Source: an uncultured bacterium (lineage in GTDB: Bacteria > Edwardsbacteria > AC1 > EtOH8). Taken from it: DNA of 64,000 nucleotides. The notes beneath the pieces were generated by a model. The model saw only the letters and a program-made list of their open reading frames with translations, did not search any database and was not told the DNA's origin. The translations under genes were made by a program, and so were the position numbers. The DNA lies in NCBI GenBank assembly GCA_937863685.1, contig CALMGM010000010.1:84158-148157 (forward strand), in the 5' to 3' direction. Below, piece by piece: positions 5,707 through 47,718 of this stretch (position 1 is its first letter; each line of letters opens with the position of its first letter).

Positions 5707-5711
5707 ATAAA

Positions 5712-14210: not shown

Positions 14211-14378
14211 TCATCCCCCCGCCCCCTTCTCTTGGCAAGAGAAGGGGAGAAAGGGGTTGAGTCAGTCTAAGCCCGAATGGGAAACGTTCGGGCTAATATT
14301 TTAGTAAAATATGCTTGATTTTACATGGTATTGAGGTGTATAGTTGGTACTGTAAACACTAAATATATCGGTGATAAA

Positions 14379-16857: not shown

Positions 16858-16882
16858 TATAAAGTTGTTTAAAGGTAATGAT

Positions 16883-17326
16883 ATGAGATATACTATAATT
16901 ATTGCTGCTTACGGTGCTGTTGTCTCTTCAATAGCATTGCTTTGGAATATTCTGCGTGATGCAAAAGACAAACCAAAAATTATATTAGACGTAGAAATTG
17001 GTATTATTGTGCCCGTACAAAATAAAAAGAAATATATATTTGTTACAATAACTAATGTTGGTCGTCGCCCGGTTATAGTCAAAGAATTAAAGGGTGTAAA
17101 AACAAAACTAATAAATTTGCCTTATGTTTTAATAGCCACTAAACAACTTCCAAAAATATTAAACGAAGGTGAATATATACAAGAAACCATACATGATCTA
17201 AATTGGTTAGATAATATTGAAAAAATATATATAAAAGACTCAACGGGTAGAGAGTGGTATCTTCCACGCAATAAGATGAAATTATTAAAGAAACAATATA
17301 CAGAGTATAAAAAGCAAATTTGGTAA
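16883..17326 (+). CDS. hypothetical small membrane-anchored protein (AT-rich)
   Basis: ATG with AAAGGTAATGAT upstream; N-terminal TM helix (IIIAAYGAVVSSIALLW); no recognisable domain. Confidence 0.35.
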   Translation: MRYTIIIAAYGAVVSSIALLWNILRDAKDKPKIILDVEIGIIVPVQNKKKYIFVTITNVGRRPVIVKELKGVKTKLINLPYVLIATKQLPKILNEGEYIQETIHDLNWLDNIEKIYIKDSTGREWYLPRNKMKLLKKQYTEYKKQIW

Positions 17327-17393
17327 AACCAGCTACCATCATAATAATCGCAACTTGAATAACCCCATTCTTTCGGTTATAATTCATCTCACG

Positions 17394-17425
17394 GTGCGGG
17401 TTCACTGCCCGCACTGCTTTTTTTT
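17394..17425 (+). terminator. rho-independent terminator closing the AT-rich island
   Basis: GTGCGGGttcactgCCCGCAC followed by TTTTTTTT. Confidence 0.6.
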
Positions 17426-17431
17426 ACAATC

Positions 17432-17470
17432 GTGTGACAATTGTGCAACAATAGTAAACGATTGTCACAC
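17432..17470. promoter_or_regulatory. 10-bp perfect inverted repeat GTGTGACAAT-N19-ATTGTCACAC upstream of the MATE gene
   Basis: Read directly; centre contains the ACAATTGT palindrome; candidate operator of unknown regulator. Confidence 0.3.
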
Positions 17471-17508
17471 CTTGTGCAGGCAATCAATATTACCTCAGGA
17501 GAACTCAT

Positions 17509-18858
17509 TTGGACCGTTCCCAGGAACTGGGGCAGACCCCGGTAGGCAAACTACTGTTAAAATATTTCCTGCCGGCCATCATCGGCGTGCTGGCCAACAC
17601 CCTCTACAACATCGTGGACCGGATCTACATCGGGCGGGGGGTGGGGGCGCTGGCGCTGTCCGGCCTGTCGGTCACCTTCCCCATCATGATCATCGCCATG
17701 GCCTTCGGCATGCTGGTGGGCATGGGGGCGGCCTCGCTGGTATCAATCCGGCTGGGCCAGCAGAACAAACCGGAGGCCGAGAAGATCCTGGGCAACGCCT
17801 TCACTTTGCTGATCATCATCTCCCTGGGCATCACGGTGCTGGGGCTGATCTTCCGGGACACTATCCTCTCGATGTTCGGGGCCGGGCCGGACACTTTGGG
17901 CTACGCCAAGCAGTACATCACCATCATCCTGTGGGGAAATATATTCCAGGGGCTGGGCTTCGGCATGAACAACATGATCCGGGCCGAGGGCAACGCCAAG
18001 GTCGCCATGTACACCATGCTGATCGGGGCGGTGGCCAATTCCCTGCTGGACCCGCTGTTCATCTTCGTCTTCCACATGGGGGTGGCCGGGGCGGCGGTGG
18101 CCACGGTGATCTCCATGGCCATCACCAGCAGCTGGGTGCTGCTGCACTTCACCGGGAACAAAAGCGGACTGCGGCTTAAGACCGCCAACCTGCGGCTGGA
18201 AAAGAAAATAGTGCTGGGCATCTTCGCCATCGGGATGGCGCCCTTCGCCATGCAGCTGGCCGGCAGCGTCATCAACGCGTTGTTCAACATCCAGCTGATA
18301 AAATACGGCGGGGACCTGGCGGTGGGCGCCATGGGAATCATCAACAGCGTGGCCATGATGGTGGTGTTCTGCGTGATCGCCATCAACATGGCCTCCCAGC
18401 CCATCATCGGCTTCAACTACGGGGCCAAAAATTTCGGACGGGTCAAGCGCACCCTCAAGCTGGCCCTGATGGCCGGCACGGCCATCACCGTCAGCGGCTG
18501 GCTGGCGGTGGAGATATTCCCCCAGGCCATCATCTCGCTGTTCAACACCAGCGATCCCCGGCTGGCCGAGATAGGGGTCCGTGGCATACGGATACTGCTG
18601 TTCATGTTCCCGGTGGTGGGCTTCCAGGTGGTGGGGTCCAATTTCTTCCAGGCCATCGGCAAGGCCAAGATCTCCATGTTCCTCAATATGCTGCGCCAGG
18701 TGATCGTGCTGATCCCCATGGTGCTGATCCTGCCGCCGCTGCTGGGGATCGACGGGGTGTGGCTGTCCGGGCCGCTGGCGGACCTGACCGCCGCCTCCAT
18801 CACCGCGGTGATGATCCTGCGGGAGGTGAAAAAGCTGAACCAGAAAAGTGTTGCTTGA
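17509..18858 (+). CDS. MATE family multidrug/sodium efflux transporter
   Basis: 12-TM protein with MATE-typical N-terminus (…LLKYFLPAIIGVLANTLYNIVDRIYIGRGVG…) and internal duplication. Confidence 0.85.
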   Translation: MDRSQELGQTPVGKLLLKYFLPAIIGVLANTLYNIVDRIYIGRGVGALALSGLSVTFPIMIIAMAFGMLVGMGAASLVSIRLGQQNKPEAEKILGNAFTLLIIISLGITVLGLIFRDTILSMFGAGPDTLGYAKQYITIILWGNIFQGLGFGMNNMIRAEGNAKVAMYTMLIGAVANSLLDPLFIFVFHMGVAGAAVATVISMAITSSWVLLHFTGNKSGLRLKTANLRLEKKIVLGIFAIGMAPFAMQLAGSVINALFNIQLIKYGGDLAVGAMGIINSVAMMVVFCVIAINMASQPIIGFNYGAKNFGRVKRTLKLALMAGTAITVSGWLAVEIFPQAIISLFNTSDPRLAEIGVRGIRILLFMFPVVGFQVVGSNFFQAIGKAKISMFLNMLRQVIVLIPMVLILPPLLGIDGVWLSGPLADLTAASITAVMILREVKKLNQKSVA

Positions 18859-19091
18859 AATTGGACGCAGATACACGCAGATTGAACGGATTCCTTTTAA
18901 AATGAATAGATTATATCAGCGTTGATCGGTATCCGATTCGGTTGCGTACAATGAAAAGGCTGAGCAGGAAAATTCGTTAAAATATAGTTTGATTTTAGAA
19001 ATTACATCAACTATAATTAGCATAGCTAATAGGGTCATTATTTAATTAGATAGTGACCTTTATTGTTTCATGATTATAAGGGAGAAAGGGA

Positions 19092-20459
19092 ATGAAAAAT
19101 ATCAAAGTAGTAGTGTTTTTTATCATAATTGCATCAGCAATTACATCATATTCGGCTGCACCTAGCATCGAATGGTCCCGGCAGTACAATATTTCAGAAA
19201 CATCACAGCATGATGCTTATGCCTGCGCAATAGATACTTTGGGTAATATCTATGTGGTAGGCAAGGTACAAGAACAGGTTGGCACTAATGATAATATTTT
19301 AGTGTTGAAATATAACTCAAGCGGAGATACCCTTTGGCATTGGTACTATGATAGCGGCAATTATGATGCAGCAAATGATTGCGTTATCAATAATATGCAA
19401 CAACTATATGTTGCTGGATCAATAAATAATAAGGCTGCTTTATTAAAATTCGATCAAAATGGAGATACGCTTTGGACCAGAGTTATCAATGATCCTAAAT
19501 ATAATGGTAAAAGTTGCGCTTTGGACGAAGCGAACAATATTTATCTTGCAGGTGATTACGATAACGGAACAACACTAATTCCGTTTATTAAAAAATTCTC
19601 GCCCCAGGGTGATTCTTTATGGCTTAAAACAATTTTATTAGAAACATATACTTTTGATTATTATATGACCGCAGATTGCGTTCTGGATAGCAATATGAAC
19701 ATTTATTTTACGGGATCTACAAGCACTCACGGTAGTTTTTTGGCAAAGTGCAACAATTTAGGGGATACCTTATGGACCCGGTTTCGCAATATTGCCGATA
19801 CTGTTAATGAGGCTGGCCAAGAATGTCATATTGATTCAGAAGGTAATATTTATGTATCGGGTGAATATTTTTATCCAGGTTCACCATCTCCTCCATATTT
19901 GGCAATGAAATACGATTCAGAAGGTAATATAATTTGGAATAATATGCAGTCTAATATGAATATAAGCATGGTGTTAGGACATAAAAGTGCATTAGATGAC
20001 CAGGGAAATTTATACGTTACCGGTCAGTCTGCGATGATCAAATACAACAGCCAGGGTGATACTGTTTGGTCGTTTTGGATCGGTTCTGGTGCATCAGGAT
20101 ATGATTGCGAATTGGCCCCTTCTGGGGAGCTTGTGCTCTGTGGGAAAATAAACGATAATGGAATTGACTATTTTCTTATCAATAAATATCAGGCAGAAAC
20201 CGGGGTTGCGGGTGATAAGCCAAAAGAATTATCAGTGGTTGACCAAAGCTCATACCTTGCATACCCAAATCCCTTCAAATCATATGCCAAGGTAAAGGGC
20301 TTGGAAGAACAGGAATTATTTGTTTACAATATATTGGGGCAGAAAGTCCAGGCATGCAAGGGATCCAAAATTGGGGAAAAATTGGCGCCGGGGATATATT
20401 TTGCCATAAAGGCAAAACTGCCGCAAATAAAGCCAGTCAAGCTGATCAAGATAAAATAA
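19092..20459 (+). CDS. secreted beta-propeller-repeat protein with type-IX-secretion-like C-terminal sorting domain (AT-rich gene)
   Basis: Signal peptide; repeated GNIYV.G…KY…GD.LW units (SBBP/PQQ-like); C-terminus …LAYPNPFKSYAKVKG…VYNILGQKV…LAPGIYF…KLIKIK matches the Por/T9SS CTD pattern. Confidence 0.55.
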   Translation: MKNIKVVVFFIIIASAITSYSAAPSIEWSRQYNISETSQHDAYACAIDTLGNIYVVGKVQEQVGTNDNILVLKYNSSGDTLWHWYYDSGNYDAANDCVINNMQQLYVAGSINNKAALLKFDQNGDTLWTRVINDPKYNGKSCALDEANNIYLAGDYDNGTTLIPFIKKFSPQGDSLWLKTILLETYTFDYYMTADCVLDSNMNIYFTGSTSTHGSFLAKCNNLGDTLWTRFRNIADTVNEAGQECHIDSEGNIYVSGEYFYPGSPSPPYLAMKYDSEGNIIWNNMQSNMNISMVLGHKSALDDQGNLYVTGQSAMIKYNSQGDTVWSFWIGSGASGYDCELAPSGELVLCGKINDNGIDYFLINKYQAETGVAGDKPKELSVVDQSSYLAYPNPFKSYAKVKGLEEQELFVYNILGQKVQACKGSKIGEKLAPGIYFAIKAKLPQIKPVKLIKIK

Positions 20460-20475
20460 TTCAAAGGATATAATA

Positions 20476-21465
20476 GTGAAGAGTGCGATCGGATTTATAA
20501 TAACAATCCTTTTCTTTAATATTGCTTTAGCCAGTGACGTGCGCATAAAAGGATTGGGGGGCAGCACCAACATCGAAGATTTAGAAAACGATATCTATGA
20601 TAATCCGGCATTAATGTCAGGCATGCAATATGATTTTGCGGCTTTGGGTTTCAGCAACAGTTTAACCATCAACGAGACTTTCTATGTTCTTGACAGCACA
20701 TACCAGTATTATAAAACTTCCAGAAATTCACCAACGATAGATATCAAGGCTGGTTTGAATGACAGAAAGACAACGAATATTGCAATAAGTTATACCGAAA
20801 ATATCAACATTAATGATTCCTCAAGAATCAACTATGGAATCATCAATCTTGGATTGGCACAAAAGGCAGGCAGGTTCGGCTACGGTTTCGGTTATGACCG
20901 ATCATTCAATGTTAATAATAGTTGGTATGGTGTCAAAGCCGGGATATCAAACATGGACAGCCTGAATAACCTGGCGTTTCTCGTAAATTATTATAAAAGA
21001 AATTATGGGGAGACCTATCTTATAGAATTGAAATGGCGTTCCATTCGCAGCAAAAACAGGACCCTTTGTTTAAAAGGCGGGTTGAGCCAGCCTTTAGGAC
21101 ATCGCGGGAATTATTTCCGTCTGGGGGTTGGTATGGTCTATTATCTAAGGCTATTAAGAACCAGAATAATATTTGATATTTACGAAGGTATTGATCTGGA
21201 TATGAGCGAATATATTTCGCTTATTGGTGACGGGCATTTGGCATTAGAGACATATATATTATCCCCATGGACGGTACGTTGTGGAACGGATGGACCAGTG
21301 CTGGATCTTGGCACAACAATTAAAATCAACGAAAAAATAAAAATCGAATATTCATTTGAAACGGAAAACCACACAACTTATAAACGGGTAGATACTCTTT
21401 ACCTTAATAATAGAACCGAATCAAAAACCCAATGCCATTACCTAAAAGCAATATACGCATTCTAA
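20476..21465 (+). CDS. putative outer-membrane beta-barrel protein (AT-rich gene)
   Basis: Signal peptide (…NIALA), amphipathic strand-like segments, C-terminal …KAIYAF aromatic terminus typical of OMPs; adjacent to the CTD cargo gene. Confidence 0.4.
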   Translation: MKSAIGFIITILFFNIALASDVRIKGLGGSTNIEDLENDIYDNPALMSGMQYDFAALGFSNSLTINETFYVLDSTYQYYKTSRNSPTIDIKAGLNDRKTTNIAISYTENININDSSRINYGIINLGLAQKAGRFGYGFGYDRSFNVNNSWYGVKAGISNMDSLNNLAFLVNYYKRNYGETYLIELKWRSIRSKNRTLCLKGGLSQPLGHRGNYFRLGVGMVYYLRLLRTRIIFDIYEGIDLDMSEYISLIGDGHLALETYILSPWTVRCGTDGPVLDLGTTIKINEKIKIEYSFETENHTTYKRVDTLYLNNRTESKTQCHYLKAIYAF

Positions 21466-21701
21466 AAAGATATTCTAATACTGGATCGATAATATCAACG
21501 TTCATCAGCGTCCTATGGAAAGTTTTGACCGGCAAGAGCAGTACTTTACAACGGATCTGATTTATCGTATAATCTTATAATGATTGTTGCCAAGACCCCC
21601 CATCAAAAAGGGGCCTTGGCCTTTCGGCGTTTCGGGTTTGAAGGTTTTTCAAGTCTTCTGAGTATAGACTGGGTAATAATTGTTATCACTAAGCCCCCGT
21701 G

Positions 21702-21738
21702 TTACTTTCTTGTGACCAAGAAAGTAACCAAAGAAGTC
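21702..21738. repeat. conserved hairpin element TTACTTTCTTGTGACCAAGAAAGTAACCAAAGAAGTC (copy 1)
   Basis: 11-bp stem TTACTTTCTTG/CAAGAAAGTAA around GTGACC; near-identical copy at 61422-61463. Confidence 0.6.
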
Positions 21739-21871
21739 TTTACCGCCCAGTTCCGCGGATGGTCAGGCCTACGCCCCGGCACTCATTGAACCAGAACAAG
21801 CAGGATGTTCATGACACAATGATTGCTTTTTCGGGGCTGATGCATAGCCGCTACACTGAAGGCGGGGTCCG

Positions 21872-21945
21872 ACCTAACCCCTGCCCCTTCCCCGCAGGGG
21901 AAGGGAAGATTGCTTCCCCCTCCTTGCGGGAGGGGGAACGAGGGG
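21872..21945. repeat. nested GC-rich hairpin repeat (relative of 15465-15533)
   Basis: CCTAACCCC…CCCCTTCCCCgcaGGGGAAGGG…CCCCCTCCttgcgGGAGGGGG read directly; produces a spurious ORF (21699-22061). Confidence 0.55.
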
Positions 21946-22077
21946 GCGGTCGGGTCGCGTCAGCGACAGTTCTTCCTTCGCCGGTCTTATATATCACAAC
22001 TCAGGACATGCTTTGTAGCTTTCTCTTCAAAGAGAAAGCGGAGAAAATAAGACAAAAATAATTTAACAAAACAGAAT

Positions 22078-25000
22078 ATGATCTGGGATAAATTTTCAAA
22101 AGCGGTCTACCAAAGCCCGTCATTCGACAAGCTTTTTAAGCTGTATGACTCTGATCAAAAGTTGTTCGGCCTGACCGGGCCCTGCGAGGCCGGCAAGTCG
22201 GTGGTGGTCTCCGGGCTGCACGCCAAAAAGCCCCGGACCCTGCTGTGGATCACCCCCGGCGACGAGGAGGCCGAGCGGCAGCGGGACAACCTCTCCGTCC
22301 TGCTGGGGCCGGATAGCATCAAATGGTGGGCGGCCTGGGACATCCTGCCGGGCGATGATAAGGAGCCGGACGTGGAGCTGGTGGGCAGCCGGATGGAATG
22401 CCTGCAGGCCCTATCGTCCAAACAGCCGGCGGTGATCCTGGCCTCGGCCAGAAGCGTCATCCAGCGCACCATCAACCCGGCCGAATTCGGCCAGCGGAGG
22501 ATCGATCTGGCCATAGGCATGAAACTGGACCGGGAGGAACTGCTGGCCAGACTGATAGATTCCGGCTATGAGCGCCAGCCGGTGGTATCGGGCATCGGGG
22601 ACATCAGCCTGCGGGGCTCCATCATCGACATTGCCAGCTTCAGCGACGACGGTCCGGTGCGCTTGGAGCTTGATGACGACATCCTGGTCTCGCTGCGCCG
22701 CTTCAGTCTGGTGGATCAGCGCTCCACCGCCCGGCTGGAAATGGTCACCATCCTGCCCCGGATGGAGACATCCGAAAGAACGGCATTGTTGCTGGAGCAC
22801 CTGCCGGAGAATTGTCTGGTGATCATGGACGAGCCGGGCGAGATCTCCTCCGAATGGGCCGAGCTGTCCGAGGAATATCAGGATATGGTCAATGATAACA
22901 GATTCGCCTCCGGTGAGCAGTTTCGGCGGGGGCTGGCAAATTTCAGCCGCCTGCTGGTGACCTCCGGGGCCGGCTTCGGGATGTCCGAGGAGAGATCGCC
23001 CGAGGAGATCGTCCGTGTCGGCATCCAGCCGGTGGAGCCGTTCATGTCCAACCTGGATCTGCTGGCTGCCAGGATCGAAAAACTGCACCAGGACAACTTT
23101 CAGATATTTCTGCTGTGCGACAACCCGGGACAGCAGGAGCGCCTGAATGAGATCATCGACGGCCAAAGCAGGGCGCGGGTCAGCCAGATCACCGTAGCCG
23201 GGCTGCACAGCGGCTTCATTTTCCCCGAGGCCTATTTATGCGCCGTCACCGAGCGGGAGATCTTTGCCAGGGAGAAACGGAGAAGGGCCAGGCGGTTCTT
23301 CAAGGGGGGCGGGGCCATCCGCAGTCTGGAGGCCCTCAAGAAGGGCGATTTCATGGTGCACGTGGACCACGGCATCTGCCAGTACCAGGGCCTGAGCAAT
23401 CTTAACATCGAAGGACGGCAGACCGAATGCCTGCTGCTGATCTTCCGGGACGGCGACAAGCTGTACCTGCCGGTGGACCAGCTGAAGCGGGTCCAGAAAT
23501 ACTCGGCCGAGGAGGGTCAGCATCCCGGCCTATCCAAGCTGGGCTCGGCGGCCTGGGAGGAGACCAAGGCCCGGGCCAAGCGCTCGGCCCGGGACATGGC
23601 CAAGGAGCTGCTGGCCCTGTATGCGGTGCGCAAATCCCAGCCGGGGATAAGATTCTCGCCCGACACCCTGTGGCAGAAGGAACTGGAGGCTTCCTTCGTC
23701 TACCAGGAGACAGCCGACCAGTTAAAGGCCATCGAGGAGATCAAGGCCGACATGGAAAGCGACAAGCCCATGGACCGCCTGCTGTGCGGCGACGTGGGCT
23801 ACGGCAAGACCGAGGTGGCCATCCGGGCGGCCTTCAAGGCGGTGATGGACGGCCGCCAGGCGGCGGTGCTGGTGCCCACCACGGTGCTGGCCGAACAGCA
23901 CTACCAGACCTTCAGGGAGCGGCTGGCCGATTATCCCGTCAAGGTGGAGATGCTGTCCCGTTTCCGCAAGCACGGCGACCAGAAGATCGTCATCAAGGCC
24001 ATAGCCGCCGGCGAGGTGGATATCGTCATCGGCACCCACCGCCTGATCCAGAAGGACGTCGAATTCAAGAAGCTGGGCCTGCTGGTGGTGGACGAGGAGC
24101 AGCGCTTCGGGGTGGCCCACAAGGAGAAGCTCAAACAATTGTTCAAAGCGGTGGACGTGCTGACCATGACCGCCACCCCCATTCCCCGCACCCTGCACAT
24201 GTCACTACTGGGGGCCCGGGACATCTCCAACATCGAGACCCCGCCCAAGGACCGCCTGGCGGTGATCACCGAAGTATCATTATGGAACGCCGCCCGGATC
24301 AAAGAGGCCATCCTGCGGGAGGTGGACCGCGGCGGGCAGGTGTTCTTTCTGCACAACCGGGTGCAGTCCATCGCCGCCATGACCGCCTACATCGCCAGCC
24401 TGGTGCCGGGAACCGAGGTGACCTTCGCCCACGGGCAGATGGAGGAGCGGGAGCTGGAGCGGGTGATGCTGGCCTTCACCGCCAAGCGCTACGACGTGCT
24501 GGTGGCCACCACCATCATCGAATCGGGCCTGGACATGCCCAACGTCAACACCATCATCATCAACCGGGCCGACAAGTTCGGGCTGGCCCAGCTGTACCAG
24601 TTGCGGGGGCGGGTGGGGCGCTCCAACAAGCGGGCCTTCGCCCACCTGATCATCCCCAAGGGGGGGCGGATCAACGAGACGGCCCGCAAGCGGCTGAGGG
24701 TGATCGAGGAGCTCTCCGAGCTGGGCTCCGGGTTCCAGCTGGCCCTGCGGGACCTGGAGATCAGGGGGGCTGGCAATCTTCTGGGGCGGGAGCAGCACGG
24801 CAACATGATCGCGGTGGGATTCGAACTCTACTGCCAGCTGCTGGATGAGGCGGTCCGGGAGCTGAAAGGGCTGCCGGCCGTGCCCCAGATCGACGTCAAG
24901 CTGGAGATCCCCGGGAGGGCCCTGATCCCGCAGGATTATGTGGAGGATCCCAACGAGAGGATCAACCTCTACCGCCAGCTGAACAAGGCCGGCGACATGG

Positions 25001-25323
25001 AGAAACTGGACAGGATCCGCGAGGAGATGTCCGACCGTTTCGGCCCGCCGCCGGAGGAGGTGGGGCATCTGCTGGATGCAGCCCGGCTCAGGCTGGGAGC
25101 GGCCAGCCTGGGGGCGGTCCGGATCAAATGGGAGGGGGCCCGGCTGGAATTGTGGTGGCCGGAGGACCGGAATCCGTCCCGGGAGAAGCTGAAGAAGCTG
25201 GTTCGGACCATCCGCCAGCCCCTGGAATTTATCGCCGCCAAGAGCTTCTGCGCCAGGATAGCGCTGGGCAGCCGGCCGGATATTGCGGCCGTTTCCGGGG
25301 AACTGTTTGCCGCCGGGAATTGA
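22078..25323 (+). CDS. mfd: transcription-repair coupling factor
   Basis: 1081-aa protein with UvrB-homology N-terminus, CarD/RNAP-interacting domain, and superfamily-2 helicase motifs (GDVGYGKTEVA, DEEQRFGV, TATPIPRT). Confidence 0.9.
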   Translation: MIWDKFSKAVYQSPSFDKLFKLYDSDQKLFGLTGPCEAGKSVVVSGLHAKKPRTLLWITPGDEEAERQRDNLSVLLGPDSIKWWAAWDILPGDDKEPDVELVGSRMECLQALSSKQPAVILASARSVIQRTINPAEFGQRRIDLAIGMKLDREELLARLIDSGYERQPVVSGIGDISLRGSIIDIASFSDDGPVRLELDDDILVSLRRFSLVDQRSTARLEMVTILPRMETSERTALLLEHLPENCLVIMDEPGEISSEWAELSEEYQDMVNDNRFASGEQFRRGLANFSRLLVTSGAGFGMSEERSPEEIVRVGIQPVEPFMSNLDLLAARIEKLHQDNFQIFLLCDNPGQQERLNEIIDGQSRARVSQITVAGLHSGFIFPEAYLCAVTEREIFAREKRRRARRFFKGGGAIRSLEALKKGDFMVHVDHGICQYQGLSNLNIEGRQTECLLLIFRDGDKLYLPVDQLKRVQKYSAEEGQHPGLSKLGSAAWEETKARAKRSARDMAKELLALYAVRKSQPGIRFSPDTLWQKELEASFVYQETADQLKAIEEIKADMESDKPMDRLLCGDVGYGKTEVAIRAAFKAVMDGRQAAVLVPTTVLAEQHYQTFRERLADYPVKVEMLSRFRKHGDQKIVIKAIAAGEVDIVIGTHRLIQKDVEFKKLGLLVVDEEQRFGVAHKEKLKQLFKAVDVLTMTATPIPRTLHMSLLGARDISNIETPPKDRLAVITEVSLWNAARIKEAILREVDRGGQVFFLHNRVQSIAAMTAYIASLVPGTEVTFAHGQMEERELERVMLAFTAKRYDVLVATTIIESGLDMPNVNTIIINRADKFGLAQLYQLRGRVGRSNKRAFAHLIIPKGGRINETARKRLRVIEELSELGSGFQLALRDLEIRGAGNLLGREQHGNMIAVGFELYCQLLDEAVRELKGLPAVPQIDVKLEIPGRALIPQDYVEDPNERINLYRQLNKAGDMEKLDRIREEMSDRFGPPPEEVGHLLDAARLRLGAASLGAVRIKWEGARLELWWPEDRNPSREKLKKLVRTIRQPLEFIAAKSFCARIALGSRPDIAAVSGELFAAGN

Positions 25324-25358
25324 ATGATTTCATCATCCCCGCTTCCGGCCATCGGGGG

Positions 25359-25387
25359 TTGACAAAGCGGGATTTAATGGCTATATT
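25359..25387 (+). promoter_or_regulatory. candidate promoter TTGACA-17-TATATT upstream of mcsA
   Basis: Hexamers read directly; no CtsR box (GGTCAAA-N3-GGTCAAA) or CIRCE element seen in this region. Confidence 0.4.
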
Positions 25388-25441
25388 TATCATATAAAAA
25401 GCAAAATAATCCGTTGTTTAATAATTGTTTAAGGCTGATAA

Positions 25442-25951
25442 ATGATCTGCGATCTGTGCAAGAAGAACCAGGCGGTGATGCGCTACACCGAGGTGCGGGA
25501 CAGCCGTAACACCGAATACAACCTGTGCCGGGAGTGCGCCGAGCTCAAGGGCCTGGCCAAGAGCCTGAACCTGGCCCTGTCGTCCCTGGGCGATATGCTG
25601 GCCGGGATGATCCGCGACATCGTCACCGAGCAGGAAGATGAAAAGACGGTCAGCTGTCCCAAATGCGGGCTGGCCCTGACCGATTTTAAAAAACTGGGCC
25701 GGCTGGGATGCCCCCAGTGCTACCAGGTGTTCAATGCCAGTCTCAAACCGCTGGTCAGGCAGATACACGGGACCAACGACCACCTGGGCAAGACCGCTCC
25801 GGCCTCACATGATATCTCGGCATTCCCGTCCGAAAACATGGTCGACCGGCTTAAACAGGAACTGCAGGCCGCGGTGCTCAAAGAGGAATACGAGAGGGCC
25901 GCCTCCCTGCGGGACCAGATCCGGCAATTGGAGACCAGTGAAACCAAATGA
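25442..25951 (+). CDS. mcsA: McsA, activator of protein-arginine kinase McsB (zinc-finger + UVR domain)
   Basis: MICDLCKKNQA… with CxxC pairs (CDLC…CREC; CPKC…CPQC) and a C-terminal UVR-like coiled coil (AASLRDQIRQLE); overlaps the mcsB start. Confidence 0.8.
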   Translation: MICDLCKKNQAVMRYTEVRDSRNTEYNLCRECAELKGLAKSLNLALSSLGDMLAGMIRDIVTEQEDEKTVSCPKCGLALTDFKKLGRLGCPQCYQVFNASLKPLVRQIHGTNDHLGKTAPASHDISAFPSENMVDRLKQELQAAVLKEEYERAASLRDQIRQLETSETK

Positions 25952-27018
25952 ACCTTCCCGACAACGGCATACAGGGCCTGATCGGCCAGGAGGCCGGATG
26001 GCTTAAGGCGCCGGGCAGCGATCCCGGTATGGTGATATCCAGCCGGGTCAGGCTGGCCCGCAACCTGGCGGAGCATCTTTTCCCGGACCGGTCAGAAAAA
26101 GATGAGCGCAGCCTGGTCCGGGCCCAGGTCAGGCAGGCGGCCGGCTCGGTGAACTATTTCGGCGATGCGGCCTTCTTCGATCTGGATGTGCTGACCAGGC
26201 TCGACAAGACCGCCCTGCTGGAGCGCCGGCTGATCAGCTCCGACCTGATGGAAAAAAACAACGGGGCCGGTCTGATGGTGGGAAGAAACCAGTCGCTGGA
26301 CCTGATGATCAACGAGGAGGACCACATCCGGATGCAGAGCCTGCTGCCCGGCCTGGACCTGATCGAGGCCTTCAGGATCGTGGACCAGGTGGACGACCAG
26401 CTGCAGCAGAAACTGGAGATGGCCTATTCACCGGAGTGGGGTTTTTTGACCTGCTGTCCCAGCAATCTGGGTACCGGCTTAAGGGCCTCGCTGCTGATCC
26501 ACCTGCCGGGCCTGGTGCGGGCCAAGAGGATCGAAAAACTGCTGTCCGAGCTGGAGGGCCAGGGGATACTGGTGCGGGGTTTCCAAGGCGAGGGCAGCGA
26601 TGCGGCCGGTGACATCTTCCAGATCTCCAACCGGGCCACCCTGGGCCGGAGCGAGCTGGAGATAATTGAGAATGTGGAGCGGGTGGGGCGCAGCCTGATG
26701 GAGCAGGAGCTGGAGACCCGCCGTCATATCATGGACCACGCCCGGCGCCAGACCGAGGATAACATCTGGAGGGCCTACGGCATCCTGTCCAACGCCCGGA
26801 TGCTATCCGCCCAGGAGTTCCTGGAACTGTCGTCCTCCCTGAGGTTGGGGATATTCCTGGAGGTATTCCCCCGGCCGGGGCTGAACATCCTCAATCAGCT
26901 GCTGGTCAACACCCAGCCGGCCCACCTGCAGATCATGCTGGATTCCGAGATGGATGCCCCGGGCCGGGACTGGGAAAGGGCCCGTCTGGTCAGGGATATC
27001 ATGGCGGATTTCTTTTAA
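25948..27018 (+). CDS. mcsB: protein-arginine kinase McsB (phosphagen/ATP:guanido phosphotransferase family)
   Basis: Phosphagen-kinase active-site motif CPSNLGTGLRAS; EEDHIRMQSL segment; length 356 aa. Confidence 0.85.
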   Translation: MNLPDNGIQGLIGQEAGWLKAPGSDPGMVISSRVRLARNLAEHLFPDRSEKDERSLVRAQVRQAAGSVNYFGDAAFFDLDVLTRLDKTALLERRLISSDLMEKNNGAGLMVGRNQSLDLMINEEDHIRMQSLLPGLDLIEAFRIVDQVDDQLQQKLEMAYSPEWGFLTCCPSNLGTGLRASLLIHLPGLVRAKRIEKLLSELEGQGILVRGFQGEGSDAAGDIFQISNRATLGRSELEIIENVERVGRSLMEQELETRRHIMDHARRQTEDNIWRAYGILSNARMLSAQEFLELSSSLRLGIFLEVFPRPGLNILNQLLVNTQPAHLQIMLDSEMDAPGRDWERARLVRDIMADFF

Positions 27019-27062
27019 ACTTTCAGGACCCCAAAACAGTCAAATAGCAATGAGCGATTTTT

Positions 27063-29543
27063 ATGAAAGACAATAGGTTCACCGAAAGGACCAAAAGGGT
27101 CCTGTTCATCGCCCGCGAGGAGGCTCGGCGCCTGCAGCACGACTACATAGGCACCGAGCATATCCTGCTGGCCACCCTCCGGGAGGGCGAAGGGGTGGCG
27201 GTGGCGGTGCTTTTGAGCCTGGGCCTCAGCACCGAGCAGATCCGCCGCAAGGTTGAGGAACTGATGCCCAAGGGCGGCGAGACCATTCTGATGGGCGAAC
27301 TGCCCTTCAACCTGTCGGCCCGGCGGGCCATGGAACTGGCGGTGGAGGAGGCCAAGAACCTCCAGCACAACTACGTGGGGACCGAGCACCTGCTGCTGGG
27401 CCTGATGGACGACCAGGAGGGGATAGCCTCCCGGGCCATGGTTTCGCTGGGTCTCAGCATCGAGATGGTGCGCTCCGAGATCCTGCGCCTGCTGTCCACC
27501 GAGCCGGGATCGGCCCCGATGTCCCAGCCGGACGGCCAGGGCAAGACCCCGGCCCTGGATTATTTCTGCCGGGATCTGACCCGGCTGGCCAGGGATGGCA
27601 AACTGGACCCGGTGATCGGACGCGGCCGGGAGATAGAGAGGGTCATCCAGATCCTGTCCCGGCGCAAGAAGAACAATCCCCTGCTGATCGGCGAGGCCGG
27701 GGTGGGCAAGACCGCCATCGTGGAGGGGCTGGCCCAGAAGATAATCAGCGGTGAGGTGCCGGAACCCCTGTTGTCCAAGCGGGTGATGGCCCTGGACCTG
27801 GCCGCGGTGGTGGCCGGGACCAAGTACCGGGGACAGTTCGAGGAGCGGATGAAGGCCCTGATGAACGAACTGCGCCAGACCCAGGAGAACATCATCTTCC
27901 TGGACGAGCTGCATACCATCGTGGGGGCCGGGGGGGCCGAGGGGGCGCTGGACGCCTCCAACATGCTCAAACCGGCCCTGGCCCGGGGGGAGATGCAGTG
28001 CGTGGGGGCCACCACTCTGGACGAATACCGCAAGCACATCGAGAAGGACGGAGCCCTGGAGCGCCGCTTCCAGAGCATCATGGTGGAGGCCCCGTCGGTG
28101 GAGGAGTCGCTCAAGATCCTCAAAGGCCTGCAGGGGAAATACCAGGAGCACCACAAGGTCAAATACAGCGACGACGCCATCGAATCGACGGTCCGGCTAT
28201 CCGACCGCTATATCACCGACCGCTTCCTGCCGGACAAGGCCATCGATGTGCTGGACGAGGCCGGCTCGCGGGCCCGGCTGTCCACTTCCGAACCGCCGGC
28301 CGAGATAAAATTCCTGGAGAGCGAACTAAAGGAACTCAAGTCCCGGAAGGTGGAGGCGGTCAAGGGCCAGGATTACGAAAAGGCCGCCACTTTAAGGGAT
28401 TCGGAGAAGAACAAGCGCAAGGAAATAGAGAGGCTGCGGGAGGCCTGGAAGAAGAGCCGCGACCTGGTGGCGGTGAACATCACCGAGGAGGATATCGCCT
28501 ATGTGATCTCCCGCTGGACCGGGATCCCCATCGTCAAGCTGGAGGAAAAGGAATCCGCCCGGCTGCTGCGGATGGAACAGGACCTGAAAAAGAGGGTGGT
28601 GGGCCAGGACCAGGCCCTGGAGGCCGTCTCCCGGGCGGTGCGCCGCAGCCGGGCCGGCATCCGGGATACCCGCCGCCCCATGGGCTCGTTCATCTTCCTG
28701 GGACCCACCGGAGTGGGCAAGACCGAACTGGCCCGGGCCCTGGCCAGCTTCCTGTTCGGCGATGAGAACGCCCTGCTTAGGGTGGACATGTCGGAATATA
28801 TGGAGAAGTTCGCGGTCTCCCGGATGGTGGGGGCGCCGCCGGGCTATGTGGGTTACGACGAGGGCGGACAGCTGACCGAGAAGATCCGGCGCAAACCCTA
28901 TTCGGTGGTGCTGCTGGACGAGATAGAGAAGGCCCATCCCGACGTGTTCAACATGCTGCTGCAGGTGCTGGAGGACGGCCAGCTGACCGACTCCTACGGC
29001 CGGAAGGTCAGTTTCAAGAACGCGGTGCTGATCATGACCTCCAACCTGGGGGCCCGGGAGATCAAGAAAGGTGTCAGCCTGGGGTTTCAGAGAAACGACC
29101 AGCTGCTGGCCTTCGACCAGATGAAGGACAAGGTGATGTCGGAGCTTAAAAGGACCTTCAACCCGGAATTCCTGAACCGGGTGGACGAGGTGGTGGTGTT
29201 CAATTCACTGGGCCGGCCGGAGATGGACATGATCGTGGACATCCTGATCGGACAACTGTCTCAGCGGCTGAGGGAGAAGGATATCACCATCGGCATCTCG
29301 CCCCGGGCCAAGGAGCTTCTGGTGAACACCGGGTTCGATCCCACCTACGGGGCCCGTCCGCTGCGCCGCACCATTCAGCGGATGGTTGAGGACCCCCTTT
29401 CCCAGGAGATCCTGAAGGGCGACGTCAAGCCGGGGGACCGGGTGTTGATCGAAGCACAGGGAGAGGTGCTGAAATTCACTCCGCAATCCCGGGAAAAGTC
29501 CGAAAAAGCCGTCCGGAAAAAACGCCCTAAGGGGGAAAAGTGA
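27063..29543 (+). CDS. clpC: ATP-dependent Clp protease ATP-binding subunit ClpC (two AAA+ modules, Clp_N repeats, UVR motif)
   Basis: Double Clp_N repeats, two Walker A sites ([16 protein letters not shown]), middle UVR coiled coil ([14 protein letters not shown]), sensor motifs. Confidence 0.9.
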
Positions 29544-29551
29544 TCACTTGG

Positions 29552-29580
29552 CCAGGCTGGTCTCAACCAGCCTGGTTCCG
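29552..29580 (+). terminator. terminator after clpC
   Basis: Perfect 9-bp stem CCAGGCTGGtctcaaCCAGCCTGG then T-rich run. Confidence 0.55.
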
Positions 29581-29602
29581 TTTATCCGGCAAGTTTTTCA
29601 AT

Positions 29603-29630
29603 TGACGGATATATAGCTGGGTGTTATAAT
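29603..29630 (+). promoter_or_regulatory. candidate promoter TTGACG-17-TATAAT upstream of bamA
   Basis: Hexamers read directly. Confidence 0.4.
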
Positions 29631-29701: not shown

Positions 29702-31963
29702 ATGAACCGCGTTTTTTTTCCGGCCCTGATCCTGGCAGTCTCTTTGTTGATCCCGGCCCGCTCGGCCGATGCCGCCATAATATCGGACCTTAAAGTGGAG
29801 GGCAGCCAGCGCATCGACCAGGAAGTGGTGCTCAACGCTTCCGGGCTGCTGCCAGGCGACCAGCTGGATGAAAATGCCCTATCCGAAGCAGTGAAGAAAA
29901 TATACCAGCTGGGTTATTTTTCGGATGTGGCGGTGGCCAGAGATTCATCGGATAACGGATATATCCTGGTGTTTTCGGTGACGGAAAAACCCATAGTGGA
30001 AAGGATAGAATTCCTGGGCAACAAGAAGATCAAATCCGACGGACTGGAGGAAAAGATCGCCCTTAAACCGGGCAGCTTTCTGGATCCCCAATATCTGGCG
30101 CAATCCAAGGATACCATTAAAGCCATGTATATGGAAAAGGGATATTTCAATGCCCAGGTCAACGACACCCTGATAGAATCGGGCAATCGTTACGCGGTCC
30201 GTTTCAAGATAGAGGAAGGCAAAAAGATCCGGGTCAAGAAGATCATCATCAGCGGCAACCAGACCCTCAAGGACAAGGCCGTCATCAAGGCCATGAAGAC
30301 CAAACCCCGGGGGTGGACCCTGGTGTGGAAGGTGATCCCCTGGTTCCGCGGCGGCTCATTCAACCAGGATACCCTGACCCAGGACCTGGACCTGATAACC
30401 CGGCTGTACAAGAATCACGGCCACCTGGAGATAGCCGCCAGACAGGACTCCCTGTCCTACAATCAGAAGATGGACCGGGTGACCGTCCACTTAGAGGTGG
30501 CCGAGGGGCCGCAGTTCCGGATAGGCAAAGTTGAGTTCTCCGGCAACGACAAGATCAATTCCAAAAGGCTGTACCGGATGACCGAGCTCAAGCCGGAAAA
30601 GGTCTTCCGGATAGACGACGCCGACAAGACCCTGGAGAACCTGTTCTCCATTTACACCGAGGAAGGCTACATCTACTGCCACATCGAACCCTTCCAGGAC
30701 CTGCGCGATTCCACGGTGGACGTCACCTACAATATCATCGAGAACAACCCGGCCTACATCAACAAAGTGATCATCGCCGGCAACACCAAGACCCGGGAAA
30801 AGGTGATCCGCCGGGTGCTTACCGTCAAGCCGGGCGAGCTTTTCCGGCGCTCCAAGGTGATGCGAAGCCAGCGGGAGATATTCACCCTGGGCTATTTTGA
30901 GGATGTCCAGCTCAACTACCAGCCGGCCGACACCCTGGGCAACATCGACCTGATCTTCGACGTCAAGGAGAAGACGGTGGGGCAGTTCCAGATCGGGACC
31001 ACCTACGGGGCCACCGACGGCCTGGCCGGATTCGTGCAGATAGGGATCCCCAATTTCCTGGGCCGGGGCCAGCAGGTCAACCTGAAGACCGAGTTCAGCA
31101 ACAAGAAGTTCAACGTCGACCTGGGCTTCACCGAGCCCTGGCTGTTCGACACCCCGACCTCGGTGGGGGTCAACGTCTATCACACCCAATACACCTATTC
31201 CGAGTACATCCAGAAAAAGACCGGCGGCAGCCTGAGCCTGGGGCGCCCCATTCCCTGGCTGGATTACACCCGGGGCTACTGGTCCTACAGCCTGGAGCGG
31301 ATCAATATCACGGATATGTCCGAATCTTTTGCCAAAGCTATGAGCGCCCAGGAATTCCCGTCCATATCATCGAGCACTTCTTTCACGCTTATAAGGGACA
31401 GCCGGGACCGCCCCTTCAACGCCAGCCACGGCACCCGGACGGTGGGATCGGCCAAGTACGCCGGCGGCATCCTGGGGGGCAGGATCAATTTTCAGAAATA
31501 CCTCATGGAATACCGGCACTACCGGCCGCTGTTCTGGAAATTCGTGGGAATGGCCCGGGCCAAGACCGGATTGGTGGACGGCTATACCGATCCCTCCACG
31601 GTGCCGGCTTACGAAAGATTCCGCATCGGCGGCTCGGGCGACGACGGGGTGCGGGGCTATCCCGACCAGAGCATCAACCGGGCCACCTACGGCGGCCGGA
31701 TAATGCTGATCAGCAACCTGGAGGTCAAATACAGTTTCAACCAGAACGTCTACCTGCTGGCCTTTGCCGACGCCGGGAACACCTGGACCCGATACGATAA
31801 GATCCACCCCTCGGTGCTGTACAAAGGGGCCGGGCTGGGGGTGCGGGCCGAGGTTCCGATGCTGGGGGTCCTGGGCCTGGACTGGGGCTGGGGCTTCGAT
31901 TGGGACAAGAACGCGCAGTCCGACAAGTGGCAGCTGCATTTCCAGCTGGGTACTTCATTCTAA
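29702..31963 (+). CDS. bamA: outer membrane protein assembly factor BamA (POTRA domains + Omp85 barrel)
   Basis: Signal peptide, five POTRA-like modules, C-terminal barrel ending …HFQLGTSF. Confidence 0.9.
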   Translation: MNRVFFPALILAVSLLIPARSADAAIISDLKVEGSQRIDQEVVLNASGLLPGDQLDENALSEAVKKIYQLGYFSDVAVARDSSDNGYILVFSVTEKPIVERIEFLGNKKIKSDGLEEKIALKPGSFLDPQYLAQSKDTIKAMYMEKGYFNAQVNDTLIESGNRYAVRFKIEEGKKIRVKKIIISGNQTLKDKAVIKAMKTKPRGWTLVWKVIPWFRGGSFNQDTLTQDLDLITRLYKNHGHLEIAARQDSLSYNQKMDRVTVHLEVAEGPQFRIGKVEFSGNDKINSKRLYRMTELKPEKVFRIDDADKTLENLFSIYTEEGYIYCHIEPFQDLRDSTVDVTYNIIENNPAYINKVIIAGNTKTREKVIRRVLTVKPGELFRRSKVMRSQREIFTLGYFEDVQLNYQPADTLGNIDLIFDVKEKTVGQFQIGTTYGATDGLAGFVQIGIPNFLGRGQQVNLKTEFSNKKFNVDLGFTEPWLFDTPTSVGVNVYHTQYTYSEYIQKKTGGSLSLGRPIPWLDYTRGYWSYSLERINITDMSESFAKAMSAQEFPSISSSTSFTLIRDSRDRPFNASHGTRTVGSAKYAGGILGGRINFQKYLMEYRHYRPLFWKFVGMARAKTGLVDGYTDPSTVPAYERFRIGGSGDDGVRGYPDQSINRATYGGRIMLISNLEVKYSFNQNVYLLAFADAGNTWTRYDKIHPSVLYKGAGLGVRAEVPMLGVLGLDWGWGFDWDKNAQSDKWQLHFQLGTSF

Positions 31964-31991
31964 TCTGTAATTCTTGGGAAGGGGTTTTGAT

Positions 31992-32951
31992 ATGATCAGC
32001 AGATATCACCGGGCGGCAGTTATCCTTTTCCTGGCGGCCATGCTCATGCCAGCCATGGCTTCCGGCCAGAAGGTGGGATATCTGGACTCCAAGGCGGTGT
32101 TCGCCCAGTACCGGGGGGGCGATGACATCCGGCAGGAGATGAACCGGATGATAGAGGGATGGAACAAGGATATCGCCTCCCGGCGCCGGACCATAGACTC
32201 CCTGGAGAAGAGCCTGGAGGAGACCGACCTGGTGATCAGCAGTGAACGGCGCAAGGCCAAAAAAGAGGAGATCTCCCTTAAGAAGCAGGAACTGGAGACA
32301 TTTGTCAAGCAGGCGTTCGATCCGGGCGGGAAAGCCGACCAGAAGAACCGGGAGCTGTCCAAGCCCATGGCCGAAAAGATAGGCAATGTGGTCAAGCGGG
32401 TGGCTCTGGACAACAACCTGCTGATGGTGCTGGATTCGTCGTCGGGGCTGGTGGTCTATGCCTCGAAAGAGCTGGACATCACCGAACAGGTGCTGGAGGA
32501 ATTGGCCAAGGAGGAGGGGATGGCCGCCAAGGTGCTGCCCAGCATCGCCATTTTCCCGGTCTGGGAGCTGGATGCCGAGGCCATAAAGAAAAAGTACGGC
32601 AAACAGGCCCTGGATTACATCTTCGCCGCGCTGGACAAGGGCCAGCAGCTCAAGCCGGTGCCCAAGAAGCAGGTGGAGGACATGGTCAAGGACAAGGGGC
32701 TGTCCAAGTCCGAGGTCAAGGAGGCCCGGGGCCTGGAGATGGCCAAGATACTCAATGCCCGTTACATGACCCTGGGGCAGATCACCCAGAACATGGTCAA
32801 CAACCAGATAACCATCACCGTCAAGATATACAACGTGGAGCGCGACCAGATGATCGCCGAGGAGAGCGAGAGGGTCAACGGTGACGGCGAGCTGGTGGCG
32901 GGCTGTGAAGGGCTGGCGGAAAAAATAAATCAGAGGATATCCCAGCAATGA
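31992..32951 (+). CDS. skp: OmpH/Skp-family periplasmic chaperone with ~150-aa C-terminal extension (ORF opens at 31974)
   Basis: Signal peptide then the Skp-like helical coiled segment (KVGYLDSKAVFAQY…); conserved position between bamA and lpxD; extra C-terminal domain of unknown type. Confidence 0.6.
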   Translation: MISRYHRAAVILFLAAMLMPAMASGQKVGYLDSKAVFAQYRGGDDIRQEMNRMIEGWNKDIASRRRTIDSLEKSLEETDLVISSERRKAKKEEISLKKQELETFVKQAFDPGGKADQKNRELSKPMAEKIGNVVKRVALDNNLLMVLDSSSGLVVYASKELDITEQVLEELAKEEGMAAKVLPSIAIFPVWELDAEAIKKKYGKQALDYIFAALDKGQQLKPVPKKQVEDMVKDKGLSKSEVKEARGLEMAKILNARYMTLGQITQNMVNNQITITVKIYNVERDQMIAEESERVNGDGELVAGCEGLAEKINQRISQQ

Positions 32952-33988
32952 GCGGATATAAAGCCAGCCTGCTGGCCCGGGAATGCGGCGGGCAGCTGCA
33001 GGGGCCGGATGTGGAGCTGACCGGCATGGCCGGCCTTAAAGAGGCCCGGCCCGGGCAGCTCAGCTTTTTAGCCAATCCCAGTTATGCCGAGTTCCTCGGC
33101 ACCACCCAGGCCTCCTGCGTGATCGTGCCCAGGAGCGCTGCGGCAGAGGGCCGGACCCTGATAATATCCGACAATCCCTACCTGAGCTTTGCCAAGGCGC
33201 TGACCTTCTTCTATAATGCCGTCAAGACCAGGCCCCTGCCGGGCATTCATCCCACGGCCGTCATCGACCCCTCGGCCAAGATAGATGCGACGGCTACTGT
33301 CGGGGCCTACGTGGTCATCGAAGCCGGGGCGGCCATCGGGGCCAACACGGTGGTAATGCCCCTGTGCTACATCGGACAGGGCACCAGCATCGGAGAAGAC
33401 TGCCTGATCTATCCCCAGGTTTCCATCAGGGAAGGCTGCCGGATAGGCAGCCGGATCATCATCCACGGCGGGGTGGTGATGGGATCGGACGGATTCGGCT
33501 ACGCCAAGGACGGAGAAAAATATTTCAAGATCCCCCAGGTGGGGAATGTCATCCTAGAGGACGACGTGGAGGTGGGGGCCAATACCGCCATCGACCGGGG
33601 AGCCCTGGGCCCCACCATCGTCAGGCATGGCACCAAGATAGACAACCTGGTGCAGATAGCCCATAATGTCCATATCGGAAAAGACGGAGTTGTTGCCGGG
33701 CAGTCCGGAGTGGCCGGCTCAACCTTCATCGGCGACCGGGTGGTGATGGGCGGGCAGGTCGGCATAATCGGGCACCTGAAGATAGGAGATGACGTAACTT
33801 TTGGCGCCCAATCAGGGGTTCTCAAATCCATCCCCAGCAAGACGGTGGCTTCCGGCTATCCGGCCAAGAAGCATACCGAGGCCCGCCGCCGCGAGGCCAG
33901 CGTGGCCCTGCTCCCGAATTACATCAAGAAGATCAATGCTCTGGAAAAAAGGATAACCGAACTGGAAAAGAAGCTGAAGGACAAATAA
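32948..33988 (+). CDS. lpxD: UDP-3-O-(3-hydroxyacyl)glucosamine N-acyltransferase
   Basis: N-terminal LpxD domain plus long left-handed hexapeptide-repeat region (…IGANTVVMPLCYIGQGTSIGEDCLIYPQVSIREGCRIGSRIII…), C-terminal coiled coil. Confidence 0.9.
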   Translation: MSGYKASLLARECGGQLQGPDVELTGMAGLKEARPGQLSFLANPSYAEFLGTTQASCVIVPRSAAAEGRTLIISDNPYLSFAKALTFFYNAVKTRPLPGIHPTAVIDPSAKIDATATVGAYVVIEAGAAIGANTVVMPLCYIGQGTSIGEDCLIYPQVSIREGCRIGSRIIIHGGVVMGSDGFGYAKDGEKYFKIPQVGNVILEDDVEVGANTAIDRGALGPTIVRHGTKIDNLVQIAHNVHIGKDGVVAGQSGVAGSTFIGDRVVMGGQVGIIGHLKIGDDVTFGAQSGVLKSIPSKTVASGYPAKKHTEARRREASVALLPNYIKKINALEKRITELEKKLKDK

Positions 33989-47530: not shown

Positions 47531-47718
47531 TCACTTGGTTTTATAATTTGTAATTCCCTGTGATCAACTATTGATTAGGATATCGATAGTCACGGATGGC
47601 ATAGATTTCCCTGCCATAATAGTGCAACGGCCGGTGAAGAAGTTCATGAAAGCAGCAGCGGGCGATGCGATCTAAAAGCCGGATAATAAGCATGTTAAAC
47701 GAAAATGGGGGAGGGGTG

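Follow-up and report, generated by a model that had tools for sequence, protein, structure and literature searches.

A 64-kb stretch of DNA from Candidatus Edwardsbacteria (positions 84,158 to 148,157 of contig CALMGM010000010.1, assembly GCA_937863685.1; referred to here as the window) carries three tightly packed genes, mcsA, mcsB and clpC, which were read from the open reading frames (ORFs) of the plus strand between 25.3 and 29.6 kb. They follow mfd, the gene of the transcription-repair coupling factor, and are in turn followed by bamA, skp and lpxD. ClpC and BamA of the window belong to clusters at 90% identity in which the named members are Candidatus Edwardsbacteria, listed as a candidate phylum by the NCBI taxonomy. 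Since BamA, Skp, LpxD and LptD are all encoded in the window, the host is a diderm bacterium. The GC content of the three genes (0.62-0.63) is the same as that of the core-gene neighbours mfd, bamA and lpxD. Taken together, the results described below make it very probable that the locus is a genuine mcsA-mcsB-clpC operon without ctsR, self-contained between a sigma-70-type promoter of its own and a hairpin at its end, and that this is the common, phylum-spanning form of the operon, to which CtsR is a Bacillota-specific addition.

The product of the first gene matched the McsA model NF053706 with an E-value of 3.5e-37 and, at residues 131-165, the UVR motif PF02151 (3.3e-09). Its translation contains two four-cysteine zinc domains (C3/C6/C29/C32 and C72/C75/C90/C93), which are followed by a C-terminal UVR coiled coil. 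Two zinc domains (Z1 and Z2) and a coiled coil are also the scheme given for McsA of Bacillus subtilis (PMC11046695). The stop codon of mcsA overlaps the start of mcsB by 4 nt (25948-25951).

McsB matched NF002194, the model of protein arginine kinases, with an E-value of 1e-108 and, over residues 60-255 of 356, the kinase family PF00217 with 2.5e-56. Residues 16-350 could be aligned end to end with the McsB structures of B. subtilis and Geobacillus (8wtb, 6tv6, 6fh1), with E-values from 4e-79 to 7e-72. The catalytic motifs NEEDH and CP(S/T)N(V/L)GT have been defined previously (PMC11046695), and both were found in the window protein. NEEDH is formed by N122-H126, in which E124 of the catalytic site aligns with B. 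subtilis E121, and C170, the first residue of CPSNLGT within the motif CPSNLGTGLRAS (residues 170-181), corresponds to the catalytic cysteine C167. On alignment of 26 homologues, NEEDH and C170 were invariant columns, demonstrating that the residues of the kinase motif are conserved. In the C-terminal dimerisation domain, R340 and D341 align with the phosphoarginine (pArg) receptor residues R337 and D338 of B. subtilis McsB, the pair that was mutated in an earlier study (PMC8370763). The family of this C-terminal domain, McsB_C (PF27454), is precomputed for the protein P0001, which is identical to McsB of the window.

Over residues 4-802, ClpC is collinear with its B. subtilis counterpart (1016 bits, about 57% identity), and comparison with Pfam revealed two Clp_N repeats, a short M-domain with a UVR motif and two AAA modules. 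An LGF tripeptide aligns with the VGF loop of B. subtilis ClpC, which we take to be the ClpP-docking loop, and in the M-domain a tyrosine stands at the position of F436 of Staphylococcus aureus ClpC. The N-domain matched N-domains of ClpC and ClpC1 proteins, including 5hbn. Two glutamates, E32 and E106, define the pArg pockets of ClpC (PMC12583610). Both are kept in the window protein as E32 and E108, each inside one of two GTEH motifs. As ClpC1 of McsB-free organisms has these glutamates too, they are necessary, not discriminating.

Upstream of mcsA lies a promoter that agrees with the consensus at 11 of 12 positions, as was found in a consensus scan (TTGACA-17-TATATT, 25359-25387). It was aligned with the corresponding region of four relatives (L081, L082, L084 and L083), whose McsB proteins are 85, 78, 74 and 60% identical to that of the window, so that the set spans 60-100% identity. 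A block GGnTTGACAAAG-nnnG-nTTTAATGGCTATATTTAT is invariant in all five genomes (alignment columns 25356-25357, 25359-25367, 25371 and 25373-25390); its flanks diverge, and one relative carries an insertion of about 70 nt. The same block precedes mcsA in two further metagenome contigs. Downstream of clpC a GC-rich hairpin was detected with a folding energy of -23.3 kcal/mol (z = -4.9), and none of 200 shuffled sequences folded as well. A consensus terminator scan had missed it, as the T-run is interrupted; equivalent hairpins follow clpC in L081, L082 and L084. The bamA gene has a separate, conserved promoter (TTGACG-17-TATAAT, 29602-29630). The conserved promoter of their own, the hairpin and the separate bamA promoter mark the three genes as a predicted discrete transcription unit (Table 1), and the separate promoter and terminator argue against co-transcription of clpC and bamA. 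Between mfd and the operon promoter no terminator was found, and therefore some read-through from mfd into the operon may occur.

Table 1. Features of the mcsA-mcsB-clpC locus and of its surroundings; coordinates are those of the window.
Feature	Coordinates	Strand	Description
mcsA promoter block	25356-25390	+	-35 TTGACA at 25359-25364, 17-nt spacer, -10 TATATT at 25382-25387
5' leader	25391-25441	+	short, AT-rich; likely ribosome-binding site AAGG at 25431-25434
mcsA	25442-25951	+	169 aa; McsB activator; NF053706 and PF02151 UVR
mcsB	25948-27018	+	356 aa; protein arginine kinase; PF00217, NF002194, PDB alignments
clpC	27063-29543	+	826 aa; class I AAA+ unfoldase; Pfam architecture and B. subtilis ClpC alignment
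Terminator-like hairpin	29550-29585	+	12-bp GC-rich stem (29550-29561/29566-29577), then U-rich UUCCGUUUAU
mfd	22078-25323	+	upstream neighbour; transcription-repair coupling factor; TIGR00580, 7.6e-302
bamA	29702-31963	+	downstream outer-membrane biogenesis gene
skp/OmpH	31974-32951	+	between bamA and lpxD
lpxD	32948-33988	+	downstream outer-membrane biogenesis gene
LptD gene	53760-56225		family match

Two elements of the leader were considered and rejected. A perfect direct repeat, TTGTTTAA-TAA-TTGTTTAA (25414-25432), has the 8-3-8 nt geometry of a CtsR box and an unrelated sequence. The repeat occurs only once in the window, but comparable matches appeared in 18 of 100 shuffled sequences and the four relatives do not keep the first copy, so that it was dismissed as an operator. 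Likewise, a structured leader or RNA thermometer was not supported: the leader folded no better than shuffled sequences (z = +1.13), and no Rfam family was found there.

To place the operon among its relatives, one genome per species was scanned, and a relative was found in at least 600 species genomes. The counts given below refer to the 80 best of these loci, ranked by similarity to the query and grouped by record title; diderm relatives are over-represented in such a ranking. Within it, 62 of 80 loci belong to named diderm phyla, namely Verrucomicrobiota (27), Planctomycetota (15), Gemmatimonadota (7), Omnitrophota (5), Eisenbacteria (2), Elusimicrobia (2) and Ignavibacteria, Binatia, Atribacterota and Kiritimatiellota (1 each). 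Seven loci are from Bacillota, nine are unclassified and two bear a label beginning Bifidobacteri- and group with Verrucomicrobiota. The latter two (L019 and L079) are metagenome-assembled genomes labelled Bifidobacteriaceae or Bifidobacterium, in which the context is ilvE-mcsA-mcsB-clpC and McsB is nested in Verrucomicrobiota; both records are probably mislabelled as to taxonomy. The mcsA gene is located directly 5' of mcsB in 77 of the 80 loci, and in most loci clpC follows directly 3'. In the initial annotation such a module was taken to be uncommon in bacteria other than monoderms, a view that does not hold given this distribution. As the same repressor-free operon recurs across many diderm phyla, the locus is ordinary rather than exceptional.

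The closest named homologues of the window McsB are from TA06, Gemmatimonadota, Zixibacteria and Latescibacterota. Bacillota McsB proteins are 39-41% identical to it, compared with 38-44% for those of Verrucomicrobiota and Planctomycetota. In a neighbour-joining tree McsB grouped by phylum, with Bacillota (together with Atribacterota) as one clade among several and Edwardsbacteria beside Elusimicrobia. The tree follows phylum boundaries, and no recent transfer from Firmicutes is seen in it.

Subsequently, ctsR and its operator were searched for. A hidden Markov model (HMM) of CtsR was built from six Bacillota loci, in each of which the ORF preceding mcsA was used; one of these ORFs was confirmed as PF05848 and PF17727. 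This model had no match in the six-frame translation of the 64-kb window. Over the 80 best loci, it recovered the six Bacillota copies (1e-66 to 1e-76) and had no match in the other 74. No CtsR box (RGTCAAA-NAN-RGTCAAA) with up to two mismatches was present near the operon, the best matches in the window having two to three mismatches; the sole box-like match near the operon has three mismatches and lies in the mcsB-clpC spacer (27028-27044). As a positive control, CtsR boxes were detected just 5' of ctsR in five of the six Bacillota loci, and upstream of mcsA they occurred in none of the diderm loci among the best 80. The CIRCE element (TTAGCACTC-N9-GAGTGCTAA) had no match in the window at up to three mismatches and was found upstream of mcsA in none of the 80 loci at up to four to five mismatches.

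The initial annotation had described mcsA-mcsB-clpC downstream of mfd in a diderm, behind a TTGACA-17-TATATT promoter and without ctsR, CtsR box or CIRCE. All of its sequence-level statements were confirmed by the ORFs, family matches and neighbours; the promoter is real and invariant in four relatives, and the absence of ctsR and of both elements holds within the window according to HMM and motif scans. That regulation is unsettled is also borne out, as no operator or regulon was found, yet this is a generic gap of all ctsR-free lineages and is not specific to this locus. Its description of the module as "Firmicute-style" had to be abandoned, given that ctsR with its operator is confined to the Bacillota loci and that the McsB tree tracks phyla. 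The ctsR-free operon is a common form, and, judged from these comparisons, CtsR looks like a Firmicute addition. The phylum-wise tree, the wide spread of the operon and the observation that Bacillota McsB is no closer than McsB of the Planctomycetes-Verrucomicrobia-Chlamydiae (PVC) group all point to long-standing inheritance, with ctsR as a presumable Bacillota-specific addition.

Several points weigh against this reading. Family scores remained below the equivalog cut-offs of NCBI, both for McsA (127.9 compared with 210 for NF053706) and for McsB (363.5 compared with 385 for NF002194 and 326 compared with 500 for NF053707). The cut-offs for McsB were probably set on Bacillota sequences, and the nearest homologues of the window McsB, which are from diderm phyla, carry the source name "protein arginine kinase". 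In the structure alignment, K193 and K197 of McsB take the place of R190 and R194, the arginines at which B. subtilis McsB is autophosphorylated and its closed octamer stabilised, and because of these two lysines the octamer-based layer of control may differ from the Bacillus model. It was also stated that activity of Gram-negative McsB homologues "has never been identified" (PMC11046695). Of the pathway partners, clpP is encoded nowhere in the 64-kb window and is not found beside tig, which is followed by genes of an M18 aminopeptidase and a PpiD-like protein. The strict motif of low-molecular-weight phosphatases of the YwlE type (C-x-G-N-x-[CS]-R-[ST]) occurred neither in the window, translated in six frames, nor in any of the 80 loci; the sole phosphatase-like gene of the window (8234-8866) belongs to the histidine-phosphatase superfamily and is not YwlE-like. 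The search for ctsR covered the 64-kb window, and the gene may lie elsewhere in the genome. The McsB tree is midpoint-rooted and carries no support values. Finally, the conserved spacer of the mcsA promoter hints at a candidate DNA-binding factor, counter to purely constitutive expression.

This last point leads to the proposal that a repressor or activator binding the invariant block (AAAG after the -35 hexamer and TTTAATGGC before the -10 hexamer) replaces CtsR as the stress switch. We consider this possible, if rather unlikely. In its favour, the spacer of the mcsA promoter keeps 13 of its 17 positions unchanged in all five genomes despite the span of McsB identity, and conservation in the bamA promoter spacer is patchy and mainly located beside both hexamers, where a TGT extension precedes the -10. 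The block itself, however, contains no inverted or direct repeat, and the only direct repeat of the leader is not conserved. Apart from a chance match in a coding region, no second copy of the block with up to three mismatches was found in the window, and beyond the two additional orthologous promoters of mcsA, a metagenome-wide scan returned only five AT-rich matches that are unrelated, which gives no sign of a regulon. A conserved small regulator gene was not seen beside the operon in any lineage, the upstream neighbours being mfd, a LolD-like ATPase or IlvE. Control of the ctsR-free operon is most likely exerted by constitutive or sigma-70-driven transcription together with post-translational control. 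In B. subtilis, heat-shock repressors as a group are also named as targets of McsB (PMC11046695), and by analogy an action of McsB on HrcA in these lineages is conceivable. In a single case (L029, Atribacterota), a small ORF upstream of mcsA resembles, by eye, a CsoR/RcnR-type metal-sensing repressor.

A second proposal concerns the surroundings of the operon. The adjacency of mfd and mcsA was found, besides the window, only in the Edwardsbacteria relatives L081, L082 and L084. On the other side, clpC is followed by bamA-skp-lpxD also in Eisenbacteria, Gemmatimonadota, Binatia and several unclassified loci. Upstream of mcsA, a LolD-like ABC ATPase is encoded in Eisenbacteria, Gemmatimonadota, Binatia and unclassified loci (of Fibrobacteres-Chlorobi-Bacteroidetes (FCB) type) and IlvE in PVC loci. 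The spacer between either of these genes and mcsA is often almost nil, whereas in the window mfd and a dedicated promoter precede mcsA. The whole or a part of the arrangement LolD-like ATPase-mcsA-mcsB-clpC-bamA-skp-lpxD was observed in L001, L003, L004, L007, L009, L014, L018, L031, L035, L052, L060, L062 and L071. In full-length loci, the block from LolD to lpxD is located at about 9.4-17.9 kb, which places the pArg module inside an outer-membrane biogenesis neighbourhood in several phyla. It could be imagined that this fixed place reflects function, for example the removal from the cytoplasm of outer-membrane protein precursors that are mislocalised or have not been exported; expression would then be coupled to envelope or proteotoxic stress by the putative factor at the promoter block, degradation tagging would be ancestral for McsB, and CtsR control would be a late Firmicute add-on. 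We regard this full scenario as doubtful, and a functional link of the module to envelope biogenesis as speculative.

Recent acquisition from a Firmicute by horizontal transfer, with ctsR lost on the way, would make the module an unusual import. The gene order is identical to that of Bacillus, and for mcsAB of Chlamydia horizontal acquisition was proposed by the authors of that study (PMC10128030). For the Edwardsbacteria operon, however, such an origin is very improbable, as the nearest McsB homologues come from further candidate phyla of diderms (TA06, Zixibacteria, Latescibacterota and Gemmatimonadota), McsB of Bacillota shows no greater identity than that of Verrucomicrobiota and Planctomycetota, McsB groups by phylum with Bacillota as one clade of several, the flanking bamA-skp-lpxD synteny is common to several diderm phyla, and the operon equals its neighbours in GC content. 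Least credible of all is the idea of a locus without any pArg degron pathway, in which McsB would act on free arginine as a small-molecule phosphagen kinase and ClpC would be a ClpB-like disaggregase: McsB does belong to the ATP:guanido phosphotransferase superfamily (PF00217) and ClpC does score high against ClpB models, but phosphagen kinases align, from their residue ~110-140 on, with residues ~24-259 of the window McsB only (1e-22 for the typical enzymes, with two-domain taurocyamine and arginine kinases reaching 1e-46), the alignment with McsB structures extends over residues 16-350 at 4e-79 and takes in the McsB-specific C-terminal domain, the N-terminal phosphagen-kinase domain is missing, a translationally coupled McsA is encoded alongside, and the ClpB matches are split in two by the short M-domain in a protein that is otherwise collinear with ClpC and has LGF at the position of its VGF loop.

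The operon was compared with known systems. The class III heat-shock operon of B. subtilis, ctsR-mcsA-mcsB-clpC, has the same order of mcsA, mcsB and clpC, and the zinc domains and coiled coil of McsA are shared. McsB of the two organisms (about 40% identity) has NEEDH, the catalytic cysteine and the pArg receptor of the R337/D338 type in common, and the ClpC proteins (about 57% identity) share the pockets of the E32/E106 type, the short M-domain and the ClpP-binding loop. In contrast to B. subtilis, the Edwardsbacteria operon has neither ctsR nor a CtsR operator and instead a plain sigma-70-type promoter that is conserved within the lineage; it stops after clpC and is followed by bamA-skp-lpxD, lysines replace Arg190 and Arg194 of McsB, and the host is a diderm. 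The same module without ctsR or CtsR box is present in the Gemmatimonadota, Eisenbacteria, Binatia, Verrucomicrobiota, Planctomycetota, Omnitrophota and Elusimicrobia loci (L001-L080), which differ from the window in having a LolD-like ATPase or IlvE upstream instead of mfd. ClpC1 of Mycobacterium tuberculosis provides the best PDB match to the N-domain of the window ClpC (1e-40), and the GTEH motifs are common to both. To our knowledge, mycobacteria have no McsB, whereas in the window the cognate kinase and its activator are encoded directly upstream of clpC.

Chlamydia trachomatis, which has McsA and McsB (CT676 and CT675) as well as ClpC, is likewise a diderm host without CtsR. It was described that its ClpC-ClpP degrades arginine-phosphorylated casein and not plain casein, and that the mcsAB operon is kept (PMC10128030). 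In addition, mcsA and mcsB are among the genes up-regulated on overexpression of ClpC (PMC11708050). Through these reports on ClpC-ClpP and mcsAB, a diderm pArg-ClpC pathway is already on record, and the casein result shows that the logic of the pathway can operate in a Gram-negative cell. In Chlamydia, mcsAB is a late developmental gene pair that lies apart from clpC on the chromosome (PMC11708050), whereas the three genes are contiguous in the window, as in most environmental diderm loci.

From these comparisons we infer that McsB of Edwardsbacteria is active as a kinase and that degradation depends on pArg, as well as how the operon is regulated. McsA would activate the McsB kinase, which would then phosphorylate arginine side chains of damaged or selected proteins. 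The arginine-phosphate mark would be bound by the two pArg pockets of the ClpC N-domain, and ClpC would unfold the substrate and pass it via the LGF loop to a ClpP encoded elsewhere. Post-translational control could be exerted through activation by McsA and through binding of pArg at the receptor site of McsB. The operon would do without CtsR because it represents the common phylum-spanning form, CtsR and its operator being Bacillota-specific.

Further features were observed in the window. Upstream of mfd lies a 613-nt gap (21466-22077) that is apparently non-coding, with a strong promoter-like site, TTTACA-17-TATAAT, at 21545-21573 and GC-rich hairpins at about 21870-21945; its sole ORF had no Pfam match, and no Rfam family was found in it at threshold. 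The region 16000-22000 has a low GC content (0.39-0.46, compared with 0.55-0.63 in flanking core genes) and encodes beta-propeller proteins with LVIVD and SBBP repeats as well as a MatE transporter; a porin-like ORF in it has no Pfam match. The segment looks like a variable region, since L081 differs from the window upstream of mfd and carries, among other differences, a DDE transposase there.

A YggS-like protein that binds pyridoxal phosphate (43266-43952) is encoded near a DivIVA-domain protein (44326-45054). YggS and DivIVA are typically paired in cell-division clusters of Gram-positive bacteria, and the pair constitutes a second "Gram-positive-looking" trait in this diderm. Three genes encode CsgG-like lipoproteins (14325-15047, 47665-48597 and 48619-49476), of which two are adjacent and both end in GISTALSMEF. 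Within 201-8139, genes of a nikR-like regulator, a ZnuA-like binding protein and CbiM/CbiQ/ABC metal uptake are flanked by the queuosine genes queH (201-737), queA (5909-6928) and tgt (7018-8139). Between 56335 and 61186, a tRNA-Leu gene is followed by the genes of trigger factor (56545-57858), the M18 aminopeptidase (57887-59299) and a PpiD/SurA-like rotamase (59372-61186), and clpP-clpX does not follow tig.

In most papers the McsB or pArg-ClpC system is labelled Gram-positive, even though McsB homologues have been reported in some Gram-negative bacteria (PMC11046695). The main value of the present results lies in the correction of this label: "Gram-positive" is a misnomer, as PVC, FCB-related and further diderm phyla commonly carry the ctsR-free operon. 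The coupling of the system to CtsR looks like a derived state of the Firmicutes, and mcsAB of Chlamydia may be an inheritance of the PVC lineage, not a horizontal import.

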